Source: Scenedesmus sp. PABB004 (taxonomy: Eukaryota). From it: a stretch of 64,000 bases of DNA. Shown piece after piece: positions 1 to 53,272 of this stretch (position 1 is the stretch's first letter; every line of letters starts with the position of its first letter). The position numbers and the translations under genes are program-made. The notes under the pieces are model-generated. The model saw nothing but the letters and a program-made list of their open reading frames with translations, did no database searches and had not been told where the DNA came from. The DNA lies in NCBI GenBank assembly GCA_014905635.1, contig JABVCE010000021.1:62001-126000 (forward strand), given 5' to 3'.

Positions 1-537
1 CGGGTCGGGCCACCTGCCGCGCGCGCCGCGGGGCGCTGTGCTGCGCCGCCCGACCGCGCCGCCGCACCAGTCAACGTCGGCCAGGCCGTCCGGCCCGCCC
101 GCGCCAGGCCTGCGCGCCGCCGCCACGACGCGCGCGCTCTGGGACGCCAGCGAGCGCACCTGCTCGAACGACCCCGCATTGCCGGGCACCAGCAGCGCCG
201 GCCGGCCCGCCGGCGGCAGCGCTGTGCGCGGCGGCGGCGGGTGGGGGTTGATCCCCCGCGCCGCGCGCCCGCCGCGCGCCGCCCGCACGCGCCGCGGCCC
301 GCGGCGGCCCGCCGCGGCCCGCCGGCGCGCACCCTGGCGCGCGAAGCTGGTCTCCCTGTACAGCAGCAGCCGGTAGCGGTGCCCCGCCCAGGCGGGGTCG
401 GCCAGCGGGACGGGCGTGTAGCTGGAGTACATGTAGGTCTGCTCGCACGCGCAGCGCTGCGCCCGCTGCAGCAGGCCACCGAGCGCGCCGAGCAGCACCA
501 CGCCCGCCAGCGCGGCAGCGGCGGCCAGCGCGCGCAT
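1..537 (-). CDS. PGAP1: GPI inositol-deacylase (PGAP1/Bst1 family), 5' part; runs off the window start
   Basis: Manual translation from ATG at 537 gives a hydrophobic N-terminus then CEQTYMYSSY...YRLLLYRE; the next exon gives PALLVPGNAGSFEQVRSLAS, matching the PGAP1 motif P-V-L-F-I-P-G-N-A-G-S-x-x-Q-V-R-S. Confidence 0.88.
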   Translation of the reverse strand, partial: MRALAAAAALAGVVLLGALGGLLQRAQRCACEQTYMYSSYTPVPLADPAWAGHRYRLLLYRETSFARQGARRRAAAGRRGPRRVRAARGGRAARGINPHPPPPRTALPPAGRPALLVPGNAGSFEQVRSLASQSARVVAAARRPGAGGPDGLADVDWCGGAVGRRSTAPRGARGRWPDP

Positions 538-29499: not shown

Positions 29500-32284
29500 A
29501 TGCAGGAGCTGGAGGCGCGGGGCGCGGAGCAGGACGACTCGAGCCAGGTGGGCGCGCGCCCGGCGCGATGCGGCGCCCGCGCCGCGCCGCGGCTGGCCCC
29601 GACAGCTCAGAGCGCCCGTGCGGGCGCGCACGGCAGCTGCGCGGCGCCAGACCGGGGGCGGCGCGCTTTGCAGCTGCCGGGCATCGCGCGCGCGCCGGCA
29701 CTTTATGGCGCCCGGGCCGCCAACCCTGGCGAGCGTGGCCTCCGCGCGCTGAGAACGTCCCGCCTTACATTCCTGCGGCGCGCCTGCCCCGCCCGGCGCC
29801 CGCAGCCGGCGCTCTATGGCCCCGGAGCCAGCCCCGCCGACGGTGAGCGCGCGGGGGCCCGGGAGCGCCCGGCGCGCGCGTGGTGGGCGCAGGCGGCGTC
29901 GCCCACGCGCCCTGCGGCGCGGATCGGGCCGCCCGCGGCCGCCCGGCGCGGGGGGCGGTCGGTCAGGCGCCGCGCCTGGCGGGCACGGGGCGCGCCCCCG
30001 GGAGCGCGCAGGCTTGGCGCGCTGCCCAGGGCACGCACGGTGGCTCGCCGCCAAAGCGGCCGCGCCGCCGCCGACGCCGCCGCGCCGCTGCTCGCGCGCG
30101 CGCGCCGCGCAGTCCGCGTCACGGGCGTGCGCGACTGGCGCTTCAACCAGCGCGCGGAGGACATCGAGTGGCTGCTCCGCCTGAGCGCGGCGGACGGGAG
30201 CGCGAGCACCGTGAGCTGGCAGATCCTCTACAACATCGCGCACGCGCAGCAATGGAGCGAGCTGCAGCGCTTCCTGCTGCCCAAGCTCAACCAGCTGCGC
30301 GCGTTCTGCCAGAGCCAGTGCATCCAGAAGCCCGGCGCCGACGCGGGCGCGCTGTTCCGGCCGCAGCCGCACGCGTTCAAGCCGTGGCGGCGCGACTTCA
30401 TCGTTGACTGGCGCCACAGCCGCGCACGCGACCAGGTGCGCGGCAGCGAGGGCGGCGGCGGCGGGGCGGCGGGGCGGGCGGCGGGGTGGCGACGGCAGCA
30501 GCAGCAGCGCGGCGGCAGCGGCGGCGGCAGCGGCGGCGGCAGCGGCGGCGGCAGCGGCGGCGGCAGCGGCGCGCCGCGCCTCGCCTCGCGCCGCGCCGCG
30601 CCTCGCACCCGCGCCGCGCCTCACCCGCGCCCGCCGCGCCCCCCGCGCCCGCGCCGCAGCTGCTCTTCCTGGTGCGCCGCTGCGACGGCGACGGCGACGG
30701 CGACGGCGCCGGCGCCGGCGCTGGGCTGCCGTGCGAGGAGTGGTGCGAGGTGGGGCCGGGGCAGCTGCCGATGTGGCTGATGGTCAAGAACTACCTGCTG
30801 CAGTACATCCTGCTCGAGGCGACCTACCTGCGCTCCGCCGCGTGCGTGCCGGGCGGCCCCGCCGACCAGGAGGCGGCCACCGCCGCGCCGGCGCGGCCGG
30901 GCGCGGCCGTGTGCTGCAGCAACGCGGCGGCCGGCGGGCCGGCAGCCGGCGGGCCGGCCGAGGCGGAGGCGTCGTGGGACCCGGAGGCCGCGGCGGCGCC
31001 GCTGCGCGGCGGCTGCAGCAGCGGCGCGGCGGCGCAGCCGAGCGCGTCGGCCGTCGCCGCGGGCGGCAGCCCCCGCGCCGCGCCGCGCGCGCACGCGCAC
31101 GCGCCGCCGGCGGGCGCGCCGCCGCCCCGGCAGCAGCAGCAGCAGCAGCAGCAGGGCGGCGGCGGCCCCGGCGAGGCCGCGGCGCAGGCGCACTGGGAGG
31201 CGGCGTGCCAGCAGTACCGGCAGTACCAGACGCAGTACAACCACTACTACGCCCAGTACCAGGCCAACCACGCGGCCGACGCGCCGCGCGGCGCGCCGCC
31301 CCCGCCCGGCCCTGCCGACGGGCGGCCGCGGCGGCCGCGGCGGCCGCGGCGACGGGCGGCATGTTTGCGGCGCCGCAGGCGCTCGCGGGCCTGGACCCGG
31401 CGGCGCTCGTCGCCGCGGCGGCGGCGCTGGCCGCCGCGGCGGCGGCCGCGGCCGCGGCCGCGACGGCCGCCGCGCCGTGCGGCCGCGGCGCGGCGTCGCC
31501 GCCCACGGGCACTGCCAACGGCGGCGAGGGCCAGACCGGCTTTGCCGGCCTGCTGCGCAGCAGCAGCGCCGCCGCCACGGGCGGCAGCAGCGCGAGCGCG
31601 TCTGCGTCGGCGGCGGCGGGCGAGGCGGACGACGCCGCGTGCGGCGGCGCGGCCGCCATGGACGCGGCGGGGCCGCAGCCGGCCGAGACGGCGGCGCTGC
31701 TGGGCGCGGGCGAGCAGGACTTCACAGAGGCGGGCGCCGACGGAGACGACGCCGGCGACGGCGCCGACTCTGGTGGCGGGCGGCAGGGGGCCGGGGCAGA
31801 GGCCATGGCCGTCGCGTCCGCGCCCGGCGCGCGCGCGCCTGCGTGGCGCGGCGAGCAGCAGCAGCAGGCGCGGCCCGCCGCCGGCGGCGCCACGAGCGCG
31901 CTGGGCAGCGGCGGCAGCGCCGCCGCCGCCGCGCCCAGCAGCAGCTACCGCGTGCCGTCGGCCAACCCGCCGCTCACGTCGGCCGGCGGCGGCTGCGGCG
32001 CGCCGGAGCCCGACTGCGGCGCGCAGGGCGCGACGAGCCTGCAGCGCTTCGTCGCGGGCGTCGGCCTCGGCGCCGGCGGCGCGCCGCGCTTCAGCGCCGA
32101 CGCCGGCCTGCGCCGCGGCGCGAGCAGCCTGGCGCGCGGCCACTCCGGCTGGCACGGCACGCCGCCCGCCGCGGCGCCGGCGCGCGGCGGCGGCGGCCTC
32201 GCGGTTGCGGGCGGCGCGCTGCCGCAGGGCCCCGGCCCGCCGGACGACAGCGGCCGCAGCAGCAGCGCGACGACCGGCGTGTAG
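29500..32284 (+). CDS. Hypothetical protein with two possible chromodomain-like segments and a low-complexity tail
   Basis: Exons give VTGVRDWRFNQRAEDIEWLLRL and DFIVDWRHSRARDQ-LLFLVRR...EEW...LMVKNYL; Q/Y-rich patch; frame change near 31300. Confidence 0.55.
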
Positions 32285-35570: not shown

Positions 35571-37990
35571 ATGAGCAGCCGGGCGGCGGGCGCGGCGGCA
35601 CGCGGGCCGGCCTTGGCTCCCCCCGGCCGCCCCCGCGCGCCGTCGCGGGGCCTCCGCACGGTGAGGCACCGGTCCCGGGCGGCTCAGGGGGGTCCGTTTA
35701 GCACGTGGCCGCGCGCGCCGGGCCTGGATCGCGGCGCTAGGGCTGGCCGCGGCGCGCGGCGGCGCCGCTGCTCACGCCGCCGCGCCCGCGCCGCGCGCAG
35801 GCGGCCCTGCGGCCGGCGGCGAGCGCGGGCCCGGCTCGCAGCGGCGTCCAGGGGCCGCTGGCGAGCGGCGGCTGCGCGGCGGCGCCGCGCCGCGCGGCCC
35901 CCGCGCCGCAGCAGCACGCCCCGCGCGGCGCGGCGCGGCAGCGGTGCTGGCGCGCCGCCGCGCTGCCGGAGCCGGCCGCCGGCGGCGGCGACGGTAGCGG
36001 CGGCAGTGGCAGCGGCGGCTCGGGCGGCGGCGGCGGCGGCTCGGGCGGCGGCGGCGGCGGCGAGGACGACGAGGAGGTGCTGGGCCTGGCCCAGGTCGAG
36101 GCGGCCGCGGCGGCGGCCAAGGTGCAGCTGCCCGCGGACGTGCTCGAGACGGCGCGCACCGTCGGCGTGCGGTCGACCGCGCTGGCCAAGCTCATCAGCC
36201 TGCAGGCGCGCGGCGCGCATCGCCGCCGCCGCACCGCCGCGCGCCGCGCGCCGCGCCGCGCCCGTGCTCTCCCCCAAGCACTCGCACGCGCACGCGCACG
36301 CCCACGCCCGCGCACGCGCACCCGCGCAGGGGCTCACGTTTGTGGGCGGGCTCGTGTCGCGCTTCCCCTGGGTGCGGTCGCGCATGCTCGCGGACGATCG
36401 CTTCCTCTTCAAGGTCGCGGCGGAGGTGGTCATCGACTCGGGTGCGGCGCGGCGGCGCAGCAGCGGGCGCGCGGCGGGGGCGCGTGTGGGTGTGGCGGCG
36501 CGCGTGGGTGCGCGCGTGGGTGTTGTGTGGGCGCGCGTGCGTGGCGCGGGCCCAGCACGCACCGCACGCACCGCACGCCGCCGCCGCCGCTGCCGCGGCG
36601 CGCAGGGTGCGCGACGGTCGCCGAGTTGCGCAAGCGGGGCGACGAGTTCTGGGCCGAGTTTGAGTTCTACCTCAGCGACCTCCTCGTCGGTGCGGCGGGG
36701 GGCGCAGGGGGAGAAGAGGGGGAGGCGGCGGCGCGGGCCAGCGAGCGCGGCGGGGCCGGTGCGCTGACGCGGCCACACCCGCGCCCGCACCCCCCACCCA
36801 CCCACACACCCACACCCACACGCACGCACGCACCCCCTCCCCACCACCCGCCAGGCATCGTGCTGGACGTCGTGCTGGTGTCCCTCATGGCGCCGCGCGC
36901 CGTCATCGGCGGCGCCGCCGCCGCGGCGGCGGGCCAGAGCGCGCTGCAGCGCTGGCTCGCCAAGGTCCCCTCCGCCGCGCTCGAGGCGAGCGTCAAGGGT
37001 GCGGCGCGCGCCCCGCCGCGACCGCCGCGCGACCGCCGCGCGCACGCCGCGACCGCCGCCGCCCACACCGTCACGCCGCCGCCGTCGCGACCCGACCCCC
37101 CGATTCGGACCCCCCCCCCCCCCCCCCACCCACCCACCCACCCACCCACCCACCCACCCACCCCCCCCAGGCGTGCGCGTGTACACGCCCGGGCTGCGCC
37201 TCGCGTGCCTGGGCGTCAAGTTCCTGGAGTACAGCCTCGCGGGCATCGTGTGCGGCTTCATCGGCCAGGGCGCGGCAAACAGCCTCATGCTGCTCAAGTG
37301 AGACGCCGCGGGCTCAGGCCCGCGCGGAGGGCTTAGGGTTCAGGCTTTAGGCCGGCGCCCGCGCCGGCGCCCGGCAGCCAGCAGCGCTGACCCCCCCCCC
37401 TCCCTCCCTCCCCCTCCTGTGCCGCCGCCCTCCCCCGCAGGCGCCAGATCCACGGCGAGCGCGAGGGCGACGTCGCGGTGCCGCCGCTCTTCCGCACCGC
37501 GCTCGTGTGGGGGCTCTTCATGGGCGTGTCGTCAAACCTGCGCTACCAGGCGCGCACGTGGTCGCGCGCACGCGCACGCACACACGCACACATGCCGCCA
37601 GCCGCCGCAGCCGCGCGGCGCAAAGAAAAGCCCGGCCGCGCGGCTCAGCGCCCCCGCCGCCGCCGCCGGCCGCGCGCGCGCGCGGCGCAGGCGGTGTTTG
37701 GCCTGGAGCGCGCGGTCGACCTCACGCTCGCGCGCGCGGTGCCGGCGATTGCCTACCCACGACCGTGGCGATCCGCTTCGCCAACAACATCATCGGCGGC
37801 GGTGCGGCGCACGCGGCGGCGCGGCGGCGGCACGGCGGCGGCGCGGCGCTGCGGGGCGGCCGCTGCGGGGGCGGCGGGGGGCGGCCGCTGCGCGGCAGCG
37901 GGCACGGCTCCGCTGACCCCCTCGCCGCCGCGGTGGCGCTGCCCCGCAGAGAACTTCATCGACATGGCGCGCTGGGCGGGCGTGCAGTGA
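35571..37990 (+). CDS. RETICULATA-related chloroplast envelope protein (DUF3411)
   Basis: Transit peptide plus Gly-rich linker; RSRMLADDRFLFKVAAEVVID, AELRKRGDEFWAEFEFYLSD, FMGVSSNLRYQ, RFANNIIG, FIDMARWAGVQ. Confidence 0.93.
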
Positions 37991-38396: not shown

Positions 38397-40137
38397 ATGG
38401 CGCTGGCGATGCACGCGCGCGGCGTCGGCCCCGCCGCCGGCGCGCGCCGCTCGACCGCTCGCCCCGGGGTGAGCCGCGCGCCCGCCTGCGCGCCGCGTCG
38501 GCACGGGGCCGGGCTGGGGGACCGACGTGGCGCGCGTCCCGCGTGCATGCACGCGCCCTCGCGCCGCGCAGCTGCCCGCACGCTCATCGCTGCCCCGCCG
38601 CCGCGCCGCCCGCCCGCAGGCCAGCTCGGCCTTCCACGGCAAGCCCCTGACCCACGTCGCGCCGGCACCGGCGCCGCGCCGCGCCGCCGCACCGGCCCGC
38701 GCGGCGCCGCCGCGCGCGGCGCGCCGCCCCGCGGTCGTGGAGGCCAACCTGTTCAGCCGCCTCGTGCGCATCGTCAAGGCCTACGTCAGCAACTTCACCG
38801 CGCAGTTCGAGGACCCCGAGCTGCTGGTGCGCGGCGCGCGCGCCGCGGCCGGCGCTCGGCGCGCCGCGCGCGTGCCGCGCGCCCGCCCGCCCGCTGACTT
38901 GCCACCCTCTGACTTGCCGCCCGCCGCCCGCTGCCCCGCACGCCCGCCCGCCGTCACAGCTGGACCGCGTGACTGACGAGATGAATGAGGACCTCATCCG
39001 CATGCGCCAGGCCACCGCCAAGGCGCGCCCGCCGCCGCGCCCGCCCCCGCCCCCGCGCCCCGCGCTGCGCCCGCGAGCCGCCGCGGCCGCCGCGAGGGCC
39101 CGCCCCTGCGCGCGCGCCGCCGCCGCGCGCTCACGCCCCGGCCGCCCCCGCCGCGCCCGCCGCGCGCGTGCGCAGGTGATGGCGTCCGAGAGGCAGATGG
39201 CCGCGAAGCACGCCGCGGCGCAGGGCACCGCGGACGAGTGGCTGCGCCGCGCGGAGCTCGCCGTGTCCAAGGGCAAGGACGAGCTCGCGCGCGAGGCGCT
39301 GCTGCGCCGCAAGACCCACGACGCCGCGGCGGGCAGCCTCAAGACGCAGCTCGACGCGCAGCGCAAGGCGCTCGAGACGCTGCAGGCGCGCCGCCGCCGC
39401 CTGCCGCTGCGCATGCATGCGCGCGCGCGCGCGCGCGCCGCCGCCGGCGCCGCCGGCGCCCCCGCCGCCGCCGCGCCGCCGCGCCGGCGCGCCCTGACAC
39501 TGCGGCCGCTGCACCCGCCGCCGCCGCGAACCCCAGGCCAACGTGCGCATGCTCGAGGGCCGCCTGGCCGAGGCGCGCAACAAGCGCGAGACGCTCAAGG
39601 CGCGCGCCGCGAGCGCCAAGAGCAGCAAGCAGGTCCAGGAGGTGCGTGCGCGGCGGCGGCGGCGCGCCCGCCCGCGCGCGCCCGCGTTTGCTCCGTGTGC
39701 CGCGTGCCGCCACCGCCCACGCTGCGCTCGCCGCGCTCGCCGCCCTCGCGCCGCCGCGCCGCGCCGCCGCGCCGCAGATGGTCGCGGGCCTGCGCCTGAA
39801 CAGCAGCACCGCGTGGGCGGCGTTTGACGTGATGGAGGAGAAGGTCATCGCGCTCGAGGCGGAGGCAGAGTCGGCCAGCCTGCTCGCGACGCCCGACGGC
39901 CTGGAGCGCCAGTTCGCGGCACTCGAGGGCGGCAGCGTGGAGGACGAGCTCGCCGCGCTCAAGCGCGGCGCGCTGGCGGCGCCGCGCGGCGCCGGCGCGG
40001 CGCCCGCCGCGGCGGCGGCGGCGCTCGGGCGGCCGGTGAGCGAGGTGCTGGTGCGCGAGCCGCGCCGCGCGCCCGCGCCGCTGTCGGGCGTTGACGCGGA
40101 GCTGGAGCAGCTGCGCAAGCGCGCGCGCGCGCAGTGA
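38397..40137 (+). CDS. VIPP: VIPP/PspA/IM30 family plastid protein
   Basis: EANLFSRLVRIVKAYV...EDPE-LL, RRAELAVSKGKDELAREAL, KRETLKARAASAK, AFDVMEEKV, ALEGGSVEDELAALK, plus C-terminal extra helix VDAELEQLRKRAR. Confidence 0.95.
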
Positions 40138-40386: not shown

Positions 40387-41664
<1,278 letters not shown>

Positions 41665-41924: not shown

Positions 41925-44348
41925 CTAGGCCGCATCCCCCGCGTCCCGGCCCGCCCAGGCGGCGTAGGTGAAGCCGCTGATCGGGGCGCGGCAGAAGGGG
42001 CACGCGGGGCAGCCGGCGCCGCCGGCGTCGGCGCCGCCCGCGTGCTGCGCGCGCGCGCCCGCGGCGCGCACGAGCTGCTTGTAGCAGTCGACGCAGAGCC
42101 GGTGGCTGCAGCTGCGGATGTGCAGCGCGTTGGGCGCGTCGAGGCAGACGCCGCACAGGTCGTCGCTGCCCGTCGACGACGCGCTGCTGCCGCCGCCGCT
42201 GCTGACGCCGGCGGCGCTGCCGCCGTCGCCGCGGGCGCTGCCGCTGCCGCTGCCGGCGCGGCGCACGGCGTCCTGTGGCGTGCGGCACCAGGTCGACGGC
42301 GCGCCGAGCTCCACGCGCAGGCCCGGCTGCAGCGCGGGCAGGCGCTGCAGCGAGAGCACGACGCCCCAGTCAAAGGGGAATCGGTTGTCCTCGAGCGACA
42401 GCCGCACCAGCGCCGGCGCGGCGCGTGCCGCGATCGCCGCCGCAAGCGCCGACGCGCCGGCGTCGCAGACGGTGTTGGCGCTCAGGTCCAGCACCTCCAG
42501 CCGGCACGCGCCCGGCGCGGCGCGGCGCGCGGGCGGGCAGGGCCCGGGCGCCGGCGCGGCGGCAACGCCCGCGGCGGCGGCGGCAGCGGCGGCGGCGGCG
42601 GCGGCGGCGGCGGCCGAGCCGCTGCTCGTGCTGCTCGCGCCGCTGCTGCTGCGCGGCTCGCGCCGCCGCGCGTCGCGCGCGCTCGCGGCGCTGCTGTCGC
42701 TCGTGCGCTCGGCGCTGGCGCGGTGCGGCCGCGCCGCACTGGCGCGCTGCCGCATGAGCGCCGCCGCGAGCGACGCCGCGCCGTCGTCCAGCACGCCCGC
42801 GCCGCGCAGGTGCAGCTTGCGCAGGCCGGCCGCGTCGGGCAGCGCCGCGGCGACCGCCTTGACGCCCTGCGTGCCCGGCGGCGGGCGCGGGGTGGGCGGC
42901 GCGGGGCTGCGCCCCTTCCCGCTGCACGCTGCTGCTGCTGCTGTCGCGCGCGCGCCCCCGCCCCCGCCCCCGCCCACAGCGCCGGCGCACCTTGTTGCCG
43001 AGGGGCAGCCCCCCAAGGTCCACCACCTCCAGGCCGTCGACCGCCCGCAGCGCCGCCGCTACGCTGTCGCAGGGGTCGCTCTGGCTCACCAGGACCAGCC
43101 GCGGGCAGCAGCAGCACCCCGCGCACTCGGCGTCGTCCGCGGCCGCGGCGTCGCCGGCGGCGGCCGCCGCCTCCACGCAGGCGAGGGCGACGCACTCTGC
43201 GTCGCTGCCGGCGGGCGAGGGCCCATTGGCGCGCTGCGAGGCCGCCGCCTCAAGGCGGCAGAGCGCGGCCGGCGCGTCCGCCGCGGCGCCGAGCGCTGCG
43301 AGGCCGCTGCTGCTGGCGCTGCTGCTGAGCGAGCCGCCGCTGCTGGCGCTGCGCTGCATGTCGCCCGGGCTGCTCGCGCCGCTGCTGCTGCCCGCGCCGC
43401 TGCTGCTGCCCGCGCCGTCGCCGCGCGCCGCGCCGGCCGCCGGCTTGGCGCGGCCCGGCCGCGCCTCGCCGCCGGCCGCGCCGCCGAGCAGCGTGAAGGC
43501 CGCGGCCTCGGCGCCGCCGGCGCAGCACCGGCGCGCACCGCCGCCGCCGCTGCAGGCGAAGCGCGGCAGCGCGGCCAGCCAGGCCTCGCCTAGCAACACC
43601 TCCTGGTCCTCGTGCACCACAAACGACACCGGCAGCTCCACCAGCTGCAGCACGCACGGCGCGCCGCCGGCGCCGCCCGGGGGCGCCGCGACGCGCAGCG
43701 TGAGCGGGCCCGCCCAGCCGCAGCGCGCGCGCAGCGCGCCCACCAGGGCCGCCAGGCCGGGGAGCCCGACCTCCTTGCGCTGCAGCACGAGCGTGCGCAG
43801 CGCGCCGCGGGCCCCGCAGCCGGGGCAGGGCGCGGCGCCGCCGCCGCCGCAGCCCGGCGGGCGCGGCGCGAGCGCGGCGGCGAGCGCCGCGCCGCCGTGC
43901 GGGCCGAGGCGGTTGTACGCGAGGTTGAGGTGCGCCAGGCTGCCGTTGGAGCGCAGCGCCGCCGCAAACGCGGCGCCGGCGGCCTTGCCGCCGCCGTTGC
44001 CGCTGTGCTGGAGGCTCGTGAGGGACGTGTTGGCGGCCAGCCCCGCCGCGACGGCCTGGCTGGTCGCCGCGGAACAGTGGCACTTGACCAGCGACAGGCT
44101 GGTCAGCGGGCAGCCGGGGCTGGCCAGCAGCGCGCGCAGCATCGCGCCGGCGCCGTCCGAGATCTCGCACCGGCTCAGGCTGAGCGCCGTGAGGCGCCGC
44201 GCGTGCAGCAGCGCCGGCGGCAGCCCCCGCGCGCCGACCGCGCACCAGCTGAGCCGCAGCGCGGCCAGCTCGGGCAGCTGCTCCAGCGCGCCCGCCAGCA
44301 GCACGCCCGTGTCGCTCGACGACGCGTGCTCCAGCTCCACCACGCGCA

Positions 44349-44419
<71 letters not shown>

Positions 44420-46501
44420 AGCGAGTCGTACGCCAGCGCTGCGAGGTGGCACATCTGCCCTGGCACCAGCCAGCCGCCGTCGGGGGGGAACAGGTAGCGC
44501 GGCACGAGCGGCAGCTTGCCGCCGGCGCCGTCGGGGCCGTCGGGCGCCCAGTAGAAGACGTTTGACAGGTGCAGCGCGCGCCCGCCGTCGCGCACCATGT
44601 GCGTCAGCGCCTCGGCCGCGACAAAGTCGGGCAGGCGCAGCCCGCCGCGCAGGCGCAGCACGAGGCCGAGCTGGCGCCCCGGGCCCACGCGCGCCGCGGC
44701 GCAGCCGAGCAGCAGCGCGAGCAGCACGACCGCAACGTCGGCGAGGCCGACCACGGCGCCCGCGACGAGCAGCGGCAGCGGCAGCGCGCCCGCGCCCGCG
44801 CACACGTCCGCCCAGCGCGGCGCCGGGACCTGCAGCGCGCCGGCGCCGGCGCCGGCGCCGGCGCCGGACGCGGCGCTCGCGCGCGCGCTGGGCGCGCCGC
44901 CGCGGTGCGCCGCGCGGCGCGGGCCGCCGCCGCCCGCGGCGCCGGGCGCGCCGCTGAACGCCACGCCCTCCGCGCCGCCGTCGCCCTCGAGCGCCGGCGG
45001 CATGACGAGCGTGAGCTGCACGCCGCCGCCCTCGCCCTCGCTCGCGATGAGCTGCACCGGCGGCGGCAGCGACGAGCGCCCGCCGCTGCGGCCGCTGCCG
45101 CTCGCGCCGGTCGCGTCGCTGGAGGCGGCCGCGGCGCCGCCGCCGCCGATCGCTGCGACCACCGCCGCGGCCGCCTCGCTGGTGCGGTTGAGCGCGGCCG
45201 CGAGGGCCTTGGTCAGCGCCTCGGGGCTCCAGATCAGCGGGCTGGCGCCCGCCGGCGCGGGGGCCGGCGCGGGGGCCGGGGCCGGGGCCGGGGCCGGGGC
45301 CGGGGCCGGCGCGGGGGCGGCCTCGACGGCCAGGCGCCGGTCGGCCGCCGCGCGCTGCGCCGACTGCAGCGCCCACTGCTGCCGCTGCGCGCGCGCCGGC
45401 TGCGGGCGCGGCGGCACCGGCTCCCAGTGCAGCAGCCGCCGCGCGCCCACCTTGCCGCCGGCCGGCGCCGGCTCGGCGGCCACCGCGACCGTGCCGTTGC
45501 CGCCGCTGCTGCTGCTGCTGCTGCTGCTGACGCTGAGGCCGGGGCCCACGTGCGCGAGCGCAGCGCCGCGCGGCCCCGCGACGCCTGCAGGCGCCGCCGC
45601 CCCGCCCAGCGCCGCCGCGAGCAGCAGGGTCGACACCACCGCCAGCGGGAGCGCCTGCAGCGCGGCCGCCACGACCGCACGCGCCTGCGAGGCGGCGCAG
45701 GGCGGCGCTCGCCGCCGCGCCGCACGCACCGCCGCCACGCGCGGCGCGCCGCGCCGCGCTGCCCCCGCCCCGCGTGTGCGCGCCGCCGCACCGGCTTGTA
45801 CGACTCCAAAAACACGAGGTCTTGACTGATGAACCGCCGGCGCAGGCGCGGCACGAGCGACACCGCGAGCGCGCAGTCGAGCAGCGGCACCGACAGCACC
45901 GCCGTCACCTGGCGGGGTGGTGCGGGGCGGCGGCACGGGCGCGGCGCGCGGCGGGGGGGGGGGGGGGGGGGCGTTGGGCGGCGCGGGGGCGCGCGGGCGC
46001 GCCGGCGGGCCGCGCGGCGGCGCGGCTCACCACGTAGCAGGCGGAGAGGTAAGCCGCGACGAGCGCGCCCACGAGCGTGAGCAGCGCGCCCGCGGCGCCG
46101 CTCAGCAGCGCGCGCAGCGGCGGCGACGCGACGCCGCCAAAGCCGAGCCCGCTGTCGCGCTGCAGCGCCGCGACGGAGAGGCAGTAGCGCAGCGCGACGA
46201 GCAGCCAGTGGTTGCGCGCGAGGATGAGGCCCCCGACCACGACCGGCACCGACACGAGGCAGCACAGCAGCACCACGCCCAGCGCGCCCAGCCCGGGCGT
46301 GCCCAGGCACAGCGCGCACAGCGCCGCGCACAGGCCGAGGCTGGCCAGGCTGGCGGCGAGCGCGAGCGCGGCGAGCGCGTCGTGCGCGCGCTGCCGCGCC
46401 GCGAGCGGCGGCCGCCGCTTGCCGCGGCGCAGCGGCCGCTCGGGCGCCGCCGGCGCCTGCGCCGCCGGCGCCGCCGACGCCGCGGCGAGCTGCAGGTCCA
46501 T
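41925..46501 (-). CDS. Membrane protein with RI-like leucine-rich repeats and C-terminal C3HC4 RING finger (putative E3 ligase)
   Basis: N-terminal hydrophobic helices; LRRs LAALRLSWCAVG, LTALSLSRCEIS, LAHLNLAYNRLG, LEVLDLSANTV; RING CGVCLD...CSHRLCVDC...CPFCR. Could be two adjacent genes. Confidence 0.75.
44351..44419. repeat. (GCC)n trinucleotide repeat encoding poly-Gly in the LRR-RING gene
   Basis: Uninterrupted ccgccgccg run. Confidence 0.9.
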
Positions 46502-47304
46502 GGCACGCCGCCTAGCACGCCGCCCGGGGCGCCCGGCGCGCGCCCATGCGGCCGGGCGCGGCAGCTGCGAGGCGCGTCGACGCGGCGCTGCCCGGCGCGG
46601 CCTGCGCGGCGGCGGCGCTCAGCGCGCGCGTGCGGCGCGGCCGCGCTGCGCCAACGGCCGGGCCGCGGCCGACGCGGCGCGCCAGGCAGCGGGCGCGGCG
46701 GGCGGGGGTGCTGCTGCCACGGCCTGCTGCCGCGCGCCCGAGGCGCCCGAGGCGCGCCCGCACGCGCGCGGCGGGCCTGATGCTTTAAGCACGCCCACCT
46801 GCAGCGGCGGCAGGGCCTGGGCTGGCGCTTTCTGGCAGCACCGGTGGTGGTGGGCGAGGGCGGGCGCGGGCGGTCGCCCGGCGCCTCCTCCCGGGCGATC
46901 AGTCGCGACCACCAGAGAGTCCAGCCGACACGGAGCGGGGCCGCTGGCGGCGGTCTGCCTCTGCCGCGCCAGGGCGTGGTGCAACCCTGCCTCGTCCCAA
47001 ACTCGGCGATTTTGGCCGAGTTTCACGTTCGCGAATCACGGCGCGCGCCGCCGTGTTTCCCTGAATCTCGGCAATCCCCGCCGCGTTTCGTGGCCTGCCG
47101 GCGCGCCTGCAGCGCCGGCCGCGGCCCCGAATCGGCGCCCCGCGCGACCCCCGCGCTGCACAGCGTCAGCGGCGGGCCCTCCCGACGCAAATCCCCGTGC
47201 GTGTGTCGGGGGGCGCGCGGGGCCCCGGGGGGCGCCCCGGCGCCGCGGGCGCGCGGCGCGCGTGCGCGGCGCTGCCACCGCCGCGCGCGCGCGCCGCCGC
47301 CGCC

Positions 47305-47549
47305 AACACCGACCATGGGCATCCTCTGATCGCCGGCCGCCTGAAACAGGCCACAGCGGCGCGAGGCATGACGGTTTGGGACCGGCCCGCAGGTCGGTGC
47401 CCCGCGAGGGGTCCGCCCCACCCGGAACGGGTGACAAGGCGAGAAACGCACGCGCACACGCCTGACCTAACCTGGCAACACAACACAACAGCAAGAGGCC
47501 TTTTAACGTCCTGCCCAGGACGGAGAGCGCAGCGCACCGCACACGCCGC
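47305..47549 (-). ncRNA. Candidate Fanzor omegaRNA scaffold / element right end
   Basis: Lies immediately 3' of the Fanzor CDS, is less GC-biased than its flanks, and holds several perfect stems: CACCGACC/GGTCGGTG (47307-47314 with 47392-47399), GCCTG-AAA-CAGGC, CCCC-GCGA-GGGG, CACCCG-GAA-CGGGTG. Confidence 0.5.
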
Positions 47550-49398
47550 TCACGCCGGGGGTCCACCGCGGCGGCGGCCGCCTGCCGGAACGCGCCGGCG
47601 AGGCGCGCGCCGCCCGCCGTGCCGCGGCCGCCGCGCAGCAACTCGTGCAGCGTGAGCGCGCAGATGTTGCGCGCCGCGTTGTCGTCGCGCGGCGCGACGA
47701 CCGTGCACCCGGGGCACTGCACCAGACCATAGATGCCCCGCAGCTTCTCCACGCGCGCCCCGCAAACAGAGCAGGTGATGCTGGTCCGGTGCTCGTCCAT
47801 GAGCACCGCGGCGACGCGCCGGCGCGCGTAGTACGTGCGCAGCAGCGCCAGCAGCGCCTGCCGCGGCGGCCCCGGCCCCGAGATGCAGCCCCCATGCCCA
47901 GGCTGGCGTCCCCGATGCCCAGCACCACCGCGGGCAGGTCGGCGGGCAGGCGCGCGTGCTGCCGGACGCGCCCGCGCACAAAGACCCGGCCGTATGCAGT
48001 CAACTGAATCGCCGCATGCAGCGCGCGCTGCTTCAGCCCGTGCTTCCGCAGCCGCCACGCACACTCTGCACGGCACGCAAGCAAGCTATATGCGAATGCA
48101 TTGTCCAACACATGATGCACCCGGCCGTTGCGCCACGCCCCGGCGGCGGCGACGCTCGTGCCCGAGTAGGCAGGGACGCGGTTCAGGCAGGCATGCACGC
48201 AGTCGCCGCCGCCGGGCGGGCGGCGTTCATACCGCCCCGGCCGCCCCGGCCGCCCCTGCTGCCACAGGCGGTGCCGCTCGATCCCGCGCGAGTCGCGGTG
48301 CGCGGCGGTCTTTATTCTAATGATGCGCTCCGCCTCGTAGCGGCGGCCGTGGTCGCCGCGGTGGCGCGGCGCGTTGGGGCAGCGCCGCTGCGCGATGCGG
48401 CGGTGCGCGACGCGCGTGCAGCCCGGGCCCTGCCGCCAAGTCGCGGCGCATATCATGCGCGCCCGGCCCGGGTCGATTCCGACTATGCGCACGCCCGCGT
48501 GCACGGCCGCGGCCGCGCCGTGCAGCGCGTGCCCCGGCGGCAGGCCATCCACGCCGCGCAGCTCGCACGGGTCGAGCGGCAGCGCGTCGAGCGCCGCCTC
48601 GTCGGCCACGCCGTGCGGCGCCAGCGCGTCGCAGAGCAGCCGCCGCGCTGCCGCCGCGCCCGCGCGGTGCTCTGCCGCGCGCTGCGCCGCCTTGGCGGCG
48701 CGCGACTGCTGGCCGCGGCGCGGGGCGGGGTCGGCGGCGCCCTCGACCCGCACGCGCACGTGCAGCGCCGCCAGATCAAACGTCACAGAGCCCGCGAAGC
48801 GCGTGTTGGCGTGCAGCACGCCGCGCGCGCGCCCGGGGTGCCGGCCAAAATCAAAATATGAGTCCCAGATGGGATCATAATCCCCATGGGGCGGCGGCGG
48901 CGCGGGCGGCGGGGCGCCTCCGCCCGGCGGGGCGGTGTTGGGCGGCGGCGGCTGGCCTGCCGGCTGGCCCCCGCGAGCGCCTTGGCCTGACGCGCGCGCA
49001 GCGCAGCATCCAGCGCCTGCATGCCCGAGGTGGACAGGTGCAGGTGCTGGGTGCCGTACTTGGGCACCGGCGCCAGCGTGAAGGCGCGCCGCTTGGGCAG
49101 CGCCACGCGCGCGGCGTGCCGCGAGCGCAGGGCGCGCAGCACCTTGCACGCGCCCGCGACCGCGATGAGCGCGTCGGGGTGCTGCCCCGCGCCGCCGGCG
49201 CGCTGCGGCGGCTGCGCGCCGCCGCTGCGGCCGCCGGGCGGCGCCGGCGCCGCCGGCGGCGGCCCCGCGCCGGCGGCGGTCGCCGCAGCCAGCACCGCCT
49301 CGAGCGTCGCGCACACCGCGCGGCGCCAGCCGGCCGGGACATCGCGACGCAGCGCCGCGACAGCCGCCGCCGCCTCCTCGAGCGTGCGCGGCGCGGGC

Positions 49399-49431
<33 letters not shown>

Positions 49432-51926
49432 GCCGGCGGCGCCGGCGCAGCGCGACCCTGCGCGGCCGCTGCGGCCGCCAGGTAGCCGCGCGCGGCCGCC
49501 AGGTAGCCGCGCGCGGCCGCCAGGTAGCCGCGCGCGGCCGCCAGTCGGGCGCCGCAGTCGCCCAGCAGACGCGCGCCCTGGTCGCGCGCGGCGCGCGCGG
49601 CGTCCGCCGCGCGGCGGGCCGCGTCCGCGTCAGGCGCCGCCGCCGCGCCGTGCGGTCGCGCGAGCCGCCGCTGGTGCTGCACGAGCGCCGCGTCGCGCTC
49701 GTGGTGCTGCACCACGGCAGCCTGCCACTCCGCCTCCACGGCTGCGAGGTCGGCCTCCACCGTCGCGTCGCCGGCGGCGGTCAGCGCGGCCAGCGCCAGC
49801 CGCAGCCGCTCCGCGGCCGCGGCCGGCAGCGCCGCGCCCGGCCCCTGGCCCGGTGCCGCGCCCGGGCCCTGGCCCGGCGCCGCGCCCGGCGCGGCGCCTT
49901 GCCCCCGGGCGCGGAGCAGCCGCGCCTCCGCGACGGCCAGCCGGCGCCGGAGCGCCGCCGCGTGCGCGTCCTTGCGCTGCAGGCGGCGCAGCCGGTTGCG
50001 CGCGTGGTCGGGCGGGCCCGTCATACCTCCCTGGACCGCAGCGCGGCTGGCGACCTCCCGCTGCAGGTCCTTGAGGGGTTCCTTGCGCAGACGCACGGCC
50101 GCCTCGCTGGCATCCACGGCGGCGCGCAGGCGCTGCACCGCCGCCTCGAGCTTGCCCAGCTCGCGCGCCCGCTGCAGCTCGCGCAGGCGCGGCTCCTGGG
50201 CGCTGGCGTCCAGCAGCTTGGGGGGCGCCGGCGGACGCTGGCCGCGGCTGCGGCTGCTGCTGCTGCCGCTGCCGCTGCCGCTGCGCCCGCTGCTGCCGTC
50301 CAGCGCCTCTGCCAGCGACTCGACGGCCGCCGCGAGCGCGCCGGCCGACGCGGGCTCCGGGGCCGCCCCGAGCGACGCGGCGCGGCGCAGCATCGCCTCC
50401 AGCGCCGGCCGCGCCGCCGCGCCCTGCTGGGCTGCCAGCGAGTCCGCGAGCCGCGGCGCGCAGGCAGCAAACATGTGCTGTTGGCCGAGCATGACGACAA
50501 AGTCGCGCGCGACGCGGCGCGCCATGGCGTCGGCGTCGCCCTCCCGGTACGCCAGGCCCTCGAGCTGCCGGGCCAGCGCCGCGCGCCAGGCGTCGTAGGC
50601 CGCGTCGTGCTGCTGCCGCGCCGCCGCGCCCGCGCCGTGCGCCAGCGGCTCCGGCGGCTGCGGCACGAGCGGCGCGCCCCCTGCCTGCGCGCCCGCGTCC
50701 GGCGCGCGCGGCATGCCGCTCCGCGCCCAGTCGAGCACGCGGCCGTGCTTGCCGGCCGCCTCGTCCGACTCCCAGCGCTGCAGGCCGGGCGTCGCCTGCG
50801 CCCCTGCCGCCTGGCGCGTGCGCGCCGCGCCGGCCGCGGGCGCGCGCGCCTCGCCGTCCGCCGCCGCCGGGAAGGGCTGCTCCAGGTGCAGGCGCATCCG
50901 CGCGAGCATGTCGCGCATCATCGCCATGGCCAGCCGCAGCCGGCCGGCGTCCTGGCCGTCGCCCGCCGCTGCGGGCACCACGCCCTCGCCCGGCTGCAGC
51001 ACGCCCTGGCGCTCCCAGAGCAGCGGCGACGCGCTGTACAGCAGCGCCGCGCCGCCGGCGATGAGGCAGTCGCGCGCGGCGCGGCTGGGCGTGCCGGCGC
51101 AGCCCGCGGCAAACCACGCCTGCAGGGCGGCGGCGTCGAGCGCCTTCTCCAGGCGCTCGCCGTCGGCGAGGTGGAGCTGCAGGTTGGTGTTGTACAGCTC
51201 CGCGAGAGGGTTGACGAGGTCGTGGTGCAGGCGGCCTGTGACCCAGGCCGGCAGGGGCACGCGCTGCAGCTCGTTGACGCCGCAGGCCTGCTCCAGCGCG
51301 TGGCGCAGGTCACTGGACAGGCCGCCGCCAACGCGCCGCCAGTTGCCCTGGCTAAAAAAGTTCATCAGGTCGTACACGAGCGGCGCGCCGCCGCACGCGG
51401 CCTGCAGGTAGCAGGCGCACGCGGGCGGCGGCGGCGCCGGCTGCTGGGCCTGCTGCGCTGCAGGCGGGGGCTGGGGCTGCTGCGGGCCCTGCTCCTGCGC
51501 CGCCGGCTGCGGCGGCGGCTGGCGCGTGTCCAGCCCGTACAGCCGGCTGCGCAGCGGGCGGGCGGGCGGGCGGGCGGCGCGACTCGGCGGGCGGCGCGGA
51601 GGAGGGGGCGCAAAGCGCGCGGGCGCGCCCCACCCGCGCGCGCGCGCACCTCGCCCCATACACGAGCGCCACGTGGTGCGCGTCGCGGCCGAGGATGCCC
51701 AGCCGGCTGTAGGCGCACACGAGCGCCTCGAGGTAGGGGACCACCTCTGGCTTGCGCACGGCGCCGCGCAGCGCGCAGACGCGCACGCCTGAGGCGGGCG
51801 GGCGGGCGGGCGGGCGAGGGCAGGTGAGGGGGGCGCGGGCAGGGCGCGGGGCGGCGGCGGCGCAGGGTGCCGAGAGAGCGGCCCGGCGGCCCGGCAGCGC
51901 GCCGCGCGGCGGGCACACTCACGCAT
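47550..51926 (-). CDS. Fanzor: Fanzor (Fanzor1-like) eukaryotic TnpB/Cas12-family RNA-guided endonuclease, ~1380 aa, 2 introns
   Basis: FTLAPVPK...HLHLST; WDSYFDF...FAGSVTFD; RuvC-I IVGIDPG; LGIGDAS...GPGPP; RuvC-II LMDEHRTSITCSVC; VQCPGC; RuvC-III RDDNAARNI. Exons 51923-51926, 51650-51788 and 47550-51546, with three 1-nt homopolymer losses restored. Confidence 0.92.
49471..49542. repeat. 21-bp tandem repeat (~3 copies) encoding LAAARGY inside Fanzor
   Basis: gcggccgccaggtagccgcgc repeated in tandem. Confidence 0.9.
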
Positions 51927-52169: not shown

Positions 52170-52686
52170 TCACATGTCTGGGATGGCGTCGAGGCTGTAG
52201 CCCGGCACGCCCTTCCAGGCCAGGACCGCGATGCGGGTGTGGTACGCGCCCGGCACAAAGCAGATGCTCCCCAGCACCAGCAGCGCCGTGGCTGACCGAG
52301 CGGCAGCGCGGGGGGCGGGGGGCGGGTGCGGCCAGGTGAGCGGAGCGTGCCGCAGCTGCCCCCGCAGCCGCTGCCGCTGCCGCTGCCACGCCTCGCGCCA
52401 CACGGCCGGCGGCGGTGGAGCGGCGGCCGCGCTCCGCGGCCGCGCCGGGCGGCGCGGGCCGCCGCCAGCGCACGGCAGGCCGCCGCGCCGCACCTGCGCC
52501 GCCCTCGGGCCCTCCCGTGTACCAGAGGCTGATGCCCGTGATCAGCATGACCGTGCCCAGCGCGCACAGCCCGACGGCGAGCGCGACCTTGCGCCACGGC
52601 CGCGCGCGCTCAAACAGCGCCGCATCCTCGCTCCAGCTCGTCGGTGCGCGGTAATCTAGCAGCCGGCCCGCGCCAGGGGCGGCCAT
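52170..52686 (-). CDS. TMEM230: TMEM230/TMEM134-like (DUF872) small membrane protein
   Basis: PWRKVALAVGLCALGTVMLITG...LLVLGSICFVPGAYHTRIAVLAWKGVPGYSLDAIPDM; one GT-AG intron. Confidence 0.9.
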
Positions 52687-53272
52687 GCGCGCCCCGGGAG
52701 CACCGACAGGGCGGGGCCGGGGCGCCACGGCGGCGGCGGAGGGCGGCGAGCAGCAGCGGCGCGGCGGACGAGGCGCCCGGGGCTGGACGGCGGGCGCTGC
52801 AGCGCTGGAGCTGTTCTCTGGACCCGAGAGAGCGCGAGGACGACGGGGCCCTGCGGCCCGCTGCTCGAGCCAGCGGCGGCGGCGCGTGCGACCTCCGTTG
52901 CTGGGCGGCGGTGCTGCTCGCTCCGGGCTGGTTTGTTCCGGGGGGCTGCGACTGCGGCCGTGCGTGGTCGGCGGTCCAGGAACGTAACACGGCAGCACCG
53001 TCGCCGCCCAAACCGCGAAGCGCGGCGCTCGCCCCGCCACCTCGGCGGCGCCGCCGCCGTGCCCACACTCCCCAGCCGCCCCACCCGGCCACCCCCTGAG
53101 CCCGACCCGCCAAGGTGCGCGCGGCGGCGCTCGCGCGCGGCGGCAGCTTCCCCGCGCCGGCGGCGCGCGCGCGGGCGCCCCAGCAGCAGGCCCTTGCGTG
53201 GGCGCGCATGCCCTGACGCTCGCTCGCCCGCGCGCCCGGGCCGCCGCCGCAGGCGCCATCCCGCAGCGCAGC

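Follow-up and report, generated by a model that had tools for sequence, protein, structure and literature searches.

Fanzors are, to our knowledge, the only RNA-guided DNA nucleases native to eukaryotes, and they are under development as compact genome editors. The question addressed here is whether a locus of Scenedesmus sp. PABB004 that is split over several open reading frames holds one working Fanzor gene, the remains of one, or something else. The locus lies on the minus strand between positions 47550 and 51926 of a 64,000-nucleotide (nt) stretch of contig JABVCE010000021.1. This whole stretch is called the window; all coordinates refer to it, and our results on genomic context apply to these 64 kb. 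A preliminary description of the stretch had proposed a large spliced Fanzor gene in four frame fragments. We report that the locus is a real and probably intact gene for a very divergent and unusually long Fanzor-type nuclease. Specifically, we consider it likely that there is one nuclear, intron-bearing gene encoding about 1380 amino acids (aa), in which a Fanzor-type core at the C-terminus is preceded by an N-terminal extension and in which the breaks of the frame are one-base under-calls in the assembly.

The G+C content is ~80% across the window (71-84% in each 2-kb bin). In each of the six frames there are stretches of hundreds of codons without a stop, and over the same locus the plus strand can be read for 1167 aa. 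An open frame as such carries no weight at this composition and therefore codon periodicity was used, i.e. the G+C content at third (GC3) and second (GC2) codon positions, which is near 0.95-1.0 and 0.3-0.7, respectively, in the true coding frames of the window. With the minus-strand frames labelled A, B and C, the GC3/GC2 plot places the coding frame in B (51830-51650), A (51590-49020), B (48890-47930) and C (47900-47570), and thus switches frame where the preliminary description had put the joints of its four fragments. The 5-nt runs 48968-48972, 47889-47893 and 47557-47561, to each of which a base was to be added, are all present. Joining the exons and adding these three bases gives 4143 nt, that is 1380 aa closed by TGA at 47552-47550, and no earlier stop interrupts the 4143 nt; the same length had been given before and our recomputation returned it.

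The two introns are predicted from codon periodicity and local splice sites, and they have the boundaries and lengths originally proposed (GTGAGT to CAG, 134 nt, and GTGCGC to GCAG, 103 nt). Their splice sites resemble those of the neighbouring PspA/IM30 and TMEM230 genes (GAG/GTGCGT...CGCAG and CAG/GTGCGG). Exon 2 has a GC3 of 0.93-0.97 versus a GC2 of 0.45-0.62, in frame B only, and needs a splice upstream because, past the stop at 51921-51919, frame B offers no ATG. Between 52172 and 51926 the last Met codon of the upstream gene and the ATG at 51926 are the only ATGs. After the second intron, GC3 in frame A is at least 0.9 and unbroken from 51590 to 49020. Coordinates of all parts of the model, and of neighbouring genes, are collected in Table 1.

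Table 1. Features of the proposed Fanzor-type gene and its neighbours (window coordinates; / marks a splice site).
Feature	Position	Strand	Remarks
Start, exon 1	51923..51926	-	ATG plus one base; first ATG past the stop of the TMEM230/134-like gene; read from sequence
Intron 1, proposed	51789..51922	-	134 nt, ATGC/GTGAGT...CAG/G; GC3 periodicity lost here
Exon 2	51650..51788	-	Frame B, RVRVCALRG...VALVYGA
Intron 2, proposed	51547..51649	-	103 nt, GAG/GTGCGC...GCAG/C
Exon 3	48973..51546	-	Frame A: ~800-aa N-terminal extension and first conserved core strand, KRRAFTLAP...HLHLSTSG
5-nt G run (minus strand)	48968..48972	-	Frame A to frame B; probably one base short
Frame B segment	47890..48967	-	Pro/Gly linker, WED-like strands, RuvC-I, helical insert, strand VVLGIGDAS
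5-nt G run (minus strand)	47889..47893	-	6 nt in public contigs; frame B to frame C
Frame C segment	47562..47888	-	Alternative RuvC-II Glu, TNB zinc ribbon, RuvC-III
5-nt C run (minus strand, 47557-47561) and stop	47550..47561	-	Extra base in contigs puts TGA 47552-47550 in frame
3' flank	47300..47549	-	G+C 58-74%; predicted 3' untranslated region, expected place of a Fanzor guide RNA
TMEM230/134-family gene	52170..52700	-	PF05915 E 2.4e-10; at least 1 intron; stop TGA 52172-52170
RETICULATA-like domain	37391..37987	+	
PspA/IM30	39137..40029	+	At least 2 exons
Histone-fold exon, H4-like by eye	41077..41349	+	
XBAT31-type RING	41970..42221	-	

The motifs listed in the preliminary description were recovered on the minus strand at the positions and in the order given there: FTLAP and FAGSVTFD upstream of RuvC-I, then GIDPG, DEHRTS, CSVC/CPGC and RDDNAARNI. 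The RuvC-I motif GIDPG has its Asp codon at 48474-48472 (D1073 in the corrected model), DEHRTS, which holds the alternative RuvC-II residue, its Glu codon at 47794-47792 (E1300), and the RuvC-III motif RDDNAARNI its first Asp codon at 47686-47684 (D1336). The zinc ribbon consists of CSVC (47773-47762) and CPGC (47716-47705), with Cys codons at 47773-47771, 47764-47762, 47716-47714 and 47707-47705. In frame B, WDSYFDF and RFAGSVTFD are the WED-like strands.

Profile searches with the frame C piece (110 aa) matched Pfam PF07282, the Cas12f1-like TNB domain, at E 4.9e-10 (39.9 bits, cut-off 26.3). In PHROG the piece matched phrog_506, 'transposase' (E 1.1e-8), and in NCBIfam IS607_TnpB (5.9e-6), guided_TnpB (1.6e-5), IS200_TnpB and Cas12f2, with E-values between 5.9e-6 and 2.5e-5; the NCBIfam scores are far under the whole-protein cut-offs because the query is the C-terminal piece only. 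Among solved structures the best match was the mimivirus protein L79 (9b0l_P, E 2.7e-4), followed by LaTranC, Cas12m and TnpB/Cas12f chains. When the piece is aligned with L79, the DEHRTS Glu is opposite E467, and RDDNAARNI has its RD opposite that of RDENAAKNI. With the catalytic D, E and D and the four zinc Cys in place, these matches agree with the membership in the TnpB/Fanzor superfamily claimed at the outset. Solved Fanzor1 structures gave no sequence match at E up to 1, and the best matches, L79 (a Fanzor2) and IS607_TnpB, leave the clade within the family undecided.

Two features of the sequence bear further on the family. All Fanzors and some TnpBs have lost the canonical RuvC-II Glu and use an alternative one ~45 residues away, which in ApmFNuc (L79) is E467, where an E467A mutant was tested (PMC10530073). 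In the corrected protein the strand 40-42 residues upstream of E1300 is VVLGIGDAS and has no Glu, as read by eye. Moreover, the family motif of Bao and Jurka is D-X(125,275)-[TS][TS]-X-X-C4-X(5,50)-RD (PMC3627910), and the corrected protein has D1073, a spacing of 228 from D to TS, T/S at 1303-1304, I, T, CSVC-X15-CPGC, X5 and RD. This match depends on the extra base at 47889-47893, which contigs in all four of the public runs compared (see below) carry. Pfam found no OrfB_IS605 or HTH domain in the gene.

For the WED and RuvC-I part, in the frame B piece, support comes only from the VGIDPG motif, which is conserved in a relative (P0001, see below), and from a lead in the ESM Atlas. By its language-model features, the Atlas placed the frame B piece (47890-48888) nearest to clusters of hypothetical proteins from fungi (Mucoromycota/Zoopagomycota). 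DUF8286 occurs in 11-21% of those fungal clusters (score 0.96, with the recognition under the reliability mark of the tool); that this domain is a Fanzor core domain may serve as a lead.

The unity of the gene can be seen from a comparison with P0001, a 627-aa metagenome protein (JGI/IMG, 'hypothetical protein') on a 5285-nt contig. It was the one true relative (E 3.6e-8) returned by phmmer with the frame B piece against 1.84 billion representative proteins; the second match was an unrelated repeat protein. In BLASTP the end of frame A (its last 59 aa) aligned with P0001 residues 29-87 (E 9e-6), frame B with residues 99-144 and 275-484 (E 6e-17) and frame C with residues 485-591 (E 3e-9). The collinearity of the three frames on P0001, together with the GC3 periodicity in the same frames, argues for one gene. 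The second break coincides exactly with the junction of residues 484 and 485, where P0001 reads GDASAGHG-GCIS unbroken and the window GDASLGMG / GCIS. The whole core is collinear at 29-32% identity, and P0001 has the motifs GVDPG, DEWRTS and RDLNAGRNI; it differs in that the called protein is without the long N-terminal part and in that its zinc ribbon has a longer insert.

Further relatives were sought with several queries. P0001 as a whole, and its residues 440-600, matched P0001 alone. No related locus was found with the 333-aa frame B piece in metagenome contigs or with the C-terminal piece in viral contigs. Two metagenome contigs of 59-60% G+C (L001 and L002, 6001-6123 in each) have a 41-aa match to P0001 at 37% identity, which was treated as chance; by tblastn they share nothing else of P0001. 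Solved structures were searched as well; the profile built from the 4-row alignment matched none of them, and P0001 alone had no meaningful match.

We now turn to the three breaks. Twelve public runs hold parts of the stretch; all are metagenomes, mostly freshwater, with no RNA run listed among them, and contigs were compared from four of these runs (X1, X2, X3 and X5), which belong to two studies. At 47889-47893, contigs in four of four runs carry an extra C behind 47888. At 47557-47561 the frame is restored in three of the four: X2 and X3 have an extra G behind 47556 and X5 an additional C after 47562, leading to an identical frame and stop, while the X1 contig ends at 47561 and is uninformative. 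An 896-nt X2 contig over 47371-48264 has seven substitutions and two insertions, the latter at exactly both run sites, and these are the only homopolymer runs of at least 5 within 47371-48264. Homopolymer runs that are one base short are the usual signature of long-read under-calling.

The first frame change lies between ~48975 and ~48942 according to the letters at third codon positions, and 48968-48972 is the sole run of at least 4 in 48935-48985. This run is our best guess for the site of the break, and its exact position leaves the length unchanged. A short intron was rejected as the cause, as the only GT in the interval (48991) is less than 45 nt from the nearest checked AGs versus 103-134 nt in the proposed introns (by eye). 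The GC3/GC2 periodicity is undiminished on either side of each break. Hence, the breaks appear to be one-base under-calls in the assembly and not lesions of the gene. Of the corrections put forward in the preliminary description, those at 47889-47893 and 47557-47561 are borne out by independent contigs; for 48968-48972, which is outside them, we infer the same.

Differences between the window and the contigs also bear on selection. Our counts rest on the 40 of 58 differences that were listed, and the test is crude, the contigs being of mixed origin. Among these, 33 of 40 are coding, with 19 of the 33 at third codon positions (binomial P 0.0036) and 17 of the 33 synonymous. This speaks for moderate purifying selection on the gene. 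The 3' flank is more variable between runs than the coding part; in X1 it has 6 changes and 2 indels in 262 nt, versus 5 changes and 1 indel in 602 nt of coding sequence.

The ~870 aa before the first conserved strand are predicted to be helical and partly coiled-coil, with low-complexity linkers. This region had no match in Pfam, NCBIfam, PHROG or the ESM Atlas, and a search for homologues was empty. An AlphaFold single-sequence model of the N-terminal 857 aa has a mean predicted local distance difference test score (pLDDT) of 47.2 and shows mostly helices and disordered linkers. Its long helices span 451-502, 512-548, 569-632 and 640-697, and blocks at ~451-550 reach a pLDDT of 74-90. The corrected protein of 1380 aa is 2.2x the Fanzor mean length of 620 aa (PMC10530073), and great variation in the N-terminal half is known among Fanzors (PMC3627910). 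Inside the extension there is also a perfect 21-nt tandem repeat in three copies (family D17, 49471-49544), which on the minus strand encodes AARGYLA three times.

The surroundings of the gene are eukaryotic and plant-like, in agreement with the eukaryotic host assumed earlier: a TMEM230/134 gene, intron-split PspA/IM30 and kinase genes, an XBAT31-type RING and a RETICULATA-like domain. The stop of the TMEM230/134-family gene is only 244 nt before the proposed start of the Fanzor-type gene. Pfam detected neither a TnpA serine recombinase nor HTH_OrfB_IS605 in the gene or in 23 neighbouring open frames. No terminal inverted repeats were found around the locus, where the repeat search gave only low-complexity GC-rich matches. 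About 530 nt downstream of the stop, at 47002-47020 on the minus strand, there is a hairpin-like palindrome with a 6-bp stem and a 7-nt loop (by eye) in sequence of 62-66% G+C. Helitron-type ends carry hairpins; nothing else at this place supports an element end.

Taken as a whole, the C-terminal ~510 aa would form a Fanzor-type core, with WED-like strands, a split RuvC with a rearranged Glu and a TNB zinc ribbon. As judged by family membership only, the protein would most likely bind a guide RNA that is encoded in the 3' region of its own gene, and by the same token double-stranded DNA would be its substrate, cut beside a short target-adjacent motif by way of the RuvC residues D1073, E1300 and D1336.

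Several observations weigh against this picture. The WED/RuvC-I piece (frame B, 333 aa) has no sequence match in Pfam, NCBIfam, PHROG or the Protein Data Bank and only one true relative among the 1.84 billion representatives; the profile search suggested as a check on the preliminary description was thus positive for the C-terminal piece (PF07282, E 4.9e-10) and negative for this one. No fold match was obtained because both AlphaFold models are of low confidence, with a pLDDT of 36.5 for P0001 with the 4-row alignment and of 47.2 for the N-terminal region. The run at 48968-48972 is covered by none of the listed contigs from the four runs, and for this reason the frame has not been shown to be open over its full length. 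In X5, one contig (depth 31) connects 47586 with 47689 and has nine other letters in place of 102 nt; as read by eye, the joint would delete the RuvC-III motif in frame. No other contig shows this joint, its shorter side has 30 letters, and such joints are often false; it may reflect either a misjoined contig or a naturally occurring variant that is nuclease-dead. As regards selection, 16 of the 33 listed coding differences alter the amino acid and the constraint is therefore moderate. Finally, neither a paralogue nor a flank repeat was found within the window, a scan of 23 neighbouring open frames showed no transposase domain, and the 3' flank has no Rfam match and a fold no better than that of shuffles (z -0.43).

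The scarcity of mobile-element marks raises the alternative of a host-domesticated Fanzor, one that has left its mobile element and in which the N-terminal coiled-coil provides a new role, for example in recruitment or assembly, with the nuclease site kept. We regard this as a tentative idea that is doubtful on present data. It would account for the lack of a second copy in the 64 kb and of a transposase domain or repeated flanks nearby, for the host-like GC3 of 0.9-1.0, for the 244 nt to the stop of a host gene, for differences between populations that are biased to third positions and for a size of 2.2x the mean of 620 aa (PMC10530073). However, copy number is seen for 64 kb of the genome only, a single copy cannot reveal transposon ends, non-autonomous Fanzor elements carry no transposase (PMC10530073), and Fanzors commonly have long N-terminal parts that vary (PMC3627910). 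In its full form, i.e. a single-copy spliced Fanzor taken over by its host and using host codons, with an intact core fused to a ~870-aa helical, coiled-coil region that has no relatives, and constrained across freshwater populations, we think the idea unlikely. If it were true, the protein would serve the biology of the host chromosome and not the spread of a transposon, and we would know of no earlier catalytically intact domesticated Fanzor. Among the papers on Fanzors and domestication that were listed (15 of 37), no title or abstract opening names a domesticated Fanzor; the domesticated TnpBs that appear in them are nuclease-dead bacterial transcription factors.

Two other alternatives concern the integrity and the extent of the gene. 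It could be a decaying pseudogene, the frameshifts being real in the organism of the window and the public contigs deriving from related strains with an intact gene. The contigs do differ from the window elsewhere too, by ~1%, and so may be from other strains, and the third break (48968-48972) is outside their coverage; yet every break is in a run of exactly 5, both runs of at least 5 in the 896 nt checked are one base short, the periodicity is undiminished at the breaks and the 4143-nt corrected frame has no stop, all of which makes decay quite unlikely. That the ~800-aa N-terminal region belongs to another gene or contains unseen introns, with a Fanzor proper of ~550-600 aa, is an explanation we find improbable. 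P0001, which has 627 aa, has only 28 aa ahead of the point where its alignment with the core begins, the mean Fanzor length is 620 aa (PMC10530073), and the N-terminal region is without relatives and RNA support. On the other hand, frame A is open with a GC3 of at least 0.9 from 51590 to 49020, into the conserved core strand, and its Met codons are all at least ~260 codons upstream of KRRAFTLAP, bar one just downstream; as for P0001, it was perhaps called by a gene caller that, as we assume, is blind to introns, and it begins with V, so it may be cut short. A last alternative is contamination or mis-binning that brought in a bacterial TnpB; IS607_TnpB is indeed the best match in NCBIfam and many unrelated GC-rich metagenome contigs touch the region, but eukaryotic genes flank the gene on one 64-kb stretch, a context that excludes this origin for practical purposes. 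Moreover, its start codon needs splicing, OrfB_IS605 and HTH matches are lacking and the Fanzor-type Glu is present.

Our preferred model, one intron-bearing Fanzor-type gene with an extended N-terminus, can be compared with known systems. With Fanzors in general it shares the D...[TS][TS]xxC4...RD motif, the TNB ribbon, an E467-type Glu, a eukaryotic host, probable introns and a variable N-terminus; it differs in its ~1380 aa, against a mean of 620 (PMC10530073), and in that the window showed neither a transposon partner nor a repeat copy nor a guide RNA. The Fanzor1c of Chlamydomonas reinhardtii (CrFNuc / CRe-1..3, Helitron2) is likewise an intron-containing gene of a green-lineage host. Its guide RNA maps to its mRNA's 3' untranslated region (PMC10530073), the position at which the flank of lower G+C content lies here. 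Going by the published description, CrFNuc has six copies with Helitron2 ends (PMC10530073), whereas here there is one copy, with no recognisable ends in 64 kb. Mimivirus L79 (ApmFNuc, Fanzor2; PDB 9b0l) aligns with the present protein at E467, at the CxxC pairs and at RD-NAA-NI; it has 520 aa and no introns and belongs to an IS607-type element with TnpA (PMC10530073), while neither TnpA nor HTH_OrfB was matched here.

A listing of 2013 includes Fanzor1 genes of Chlamydomonas, Volvox and Chlorella (PMC3627910), and in 2023 Jiang et al. worked on a Chlamydomonas Fanzor whose gene is intron-bearing (PMC10530073). Fanzors in green algae being known from these two papers, the gene is not new in kind, and the points worth following are its divergence, its size and the absence of transposon marks in the window. 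It would add a very divergent Fanzor lineage from an extremely GC-rich green-lineage host, with an extension that brings the protein to more than twice its usual size. Should the extension and the presence of one copy only be borne out, the gene would offer a test of whether eukaryotes have turned a Fanzor to their own ends. The locus also carries a warning for annotation: at 80% G+C and with error-prone reads, under-calls in 5-nt runs split genes, and automatic annotation would miss the pieces.

Some minor features of the window were noted as well. Its G+C content of 71-84% (1-64000) is extreme for a nuclear genome, yet the genes are eukaryotic and intron-split. A run of ~19 G is present at 45953-45971 (family D13), the true length of which is doubtful given the under-called 5-nt runs, and a (GCC)n microsatellite of ~70 nt at 44350-44420. 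A tRNA-Gly(GCC) gene was called on the minus strand at 31853-31951; at 99 nt it is over the standard tRNA length and may hold an intron.

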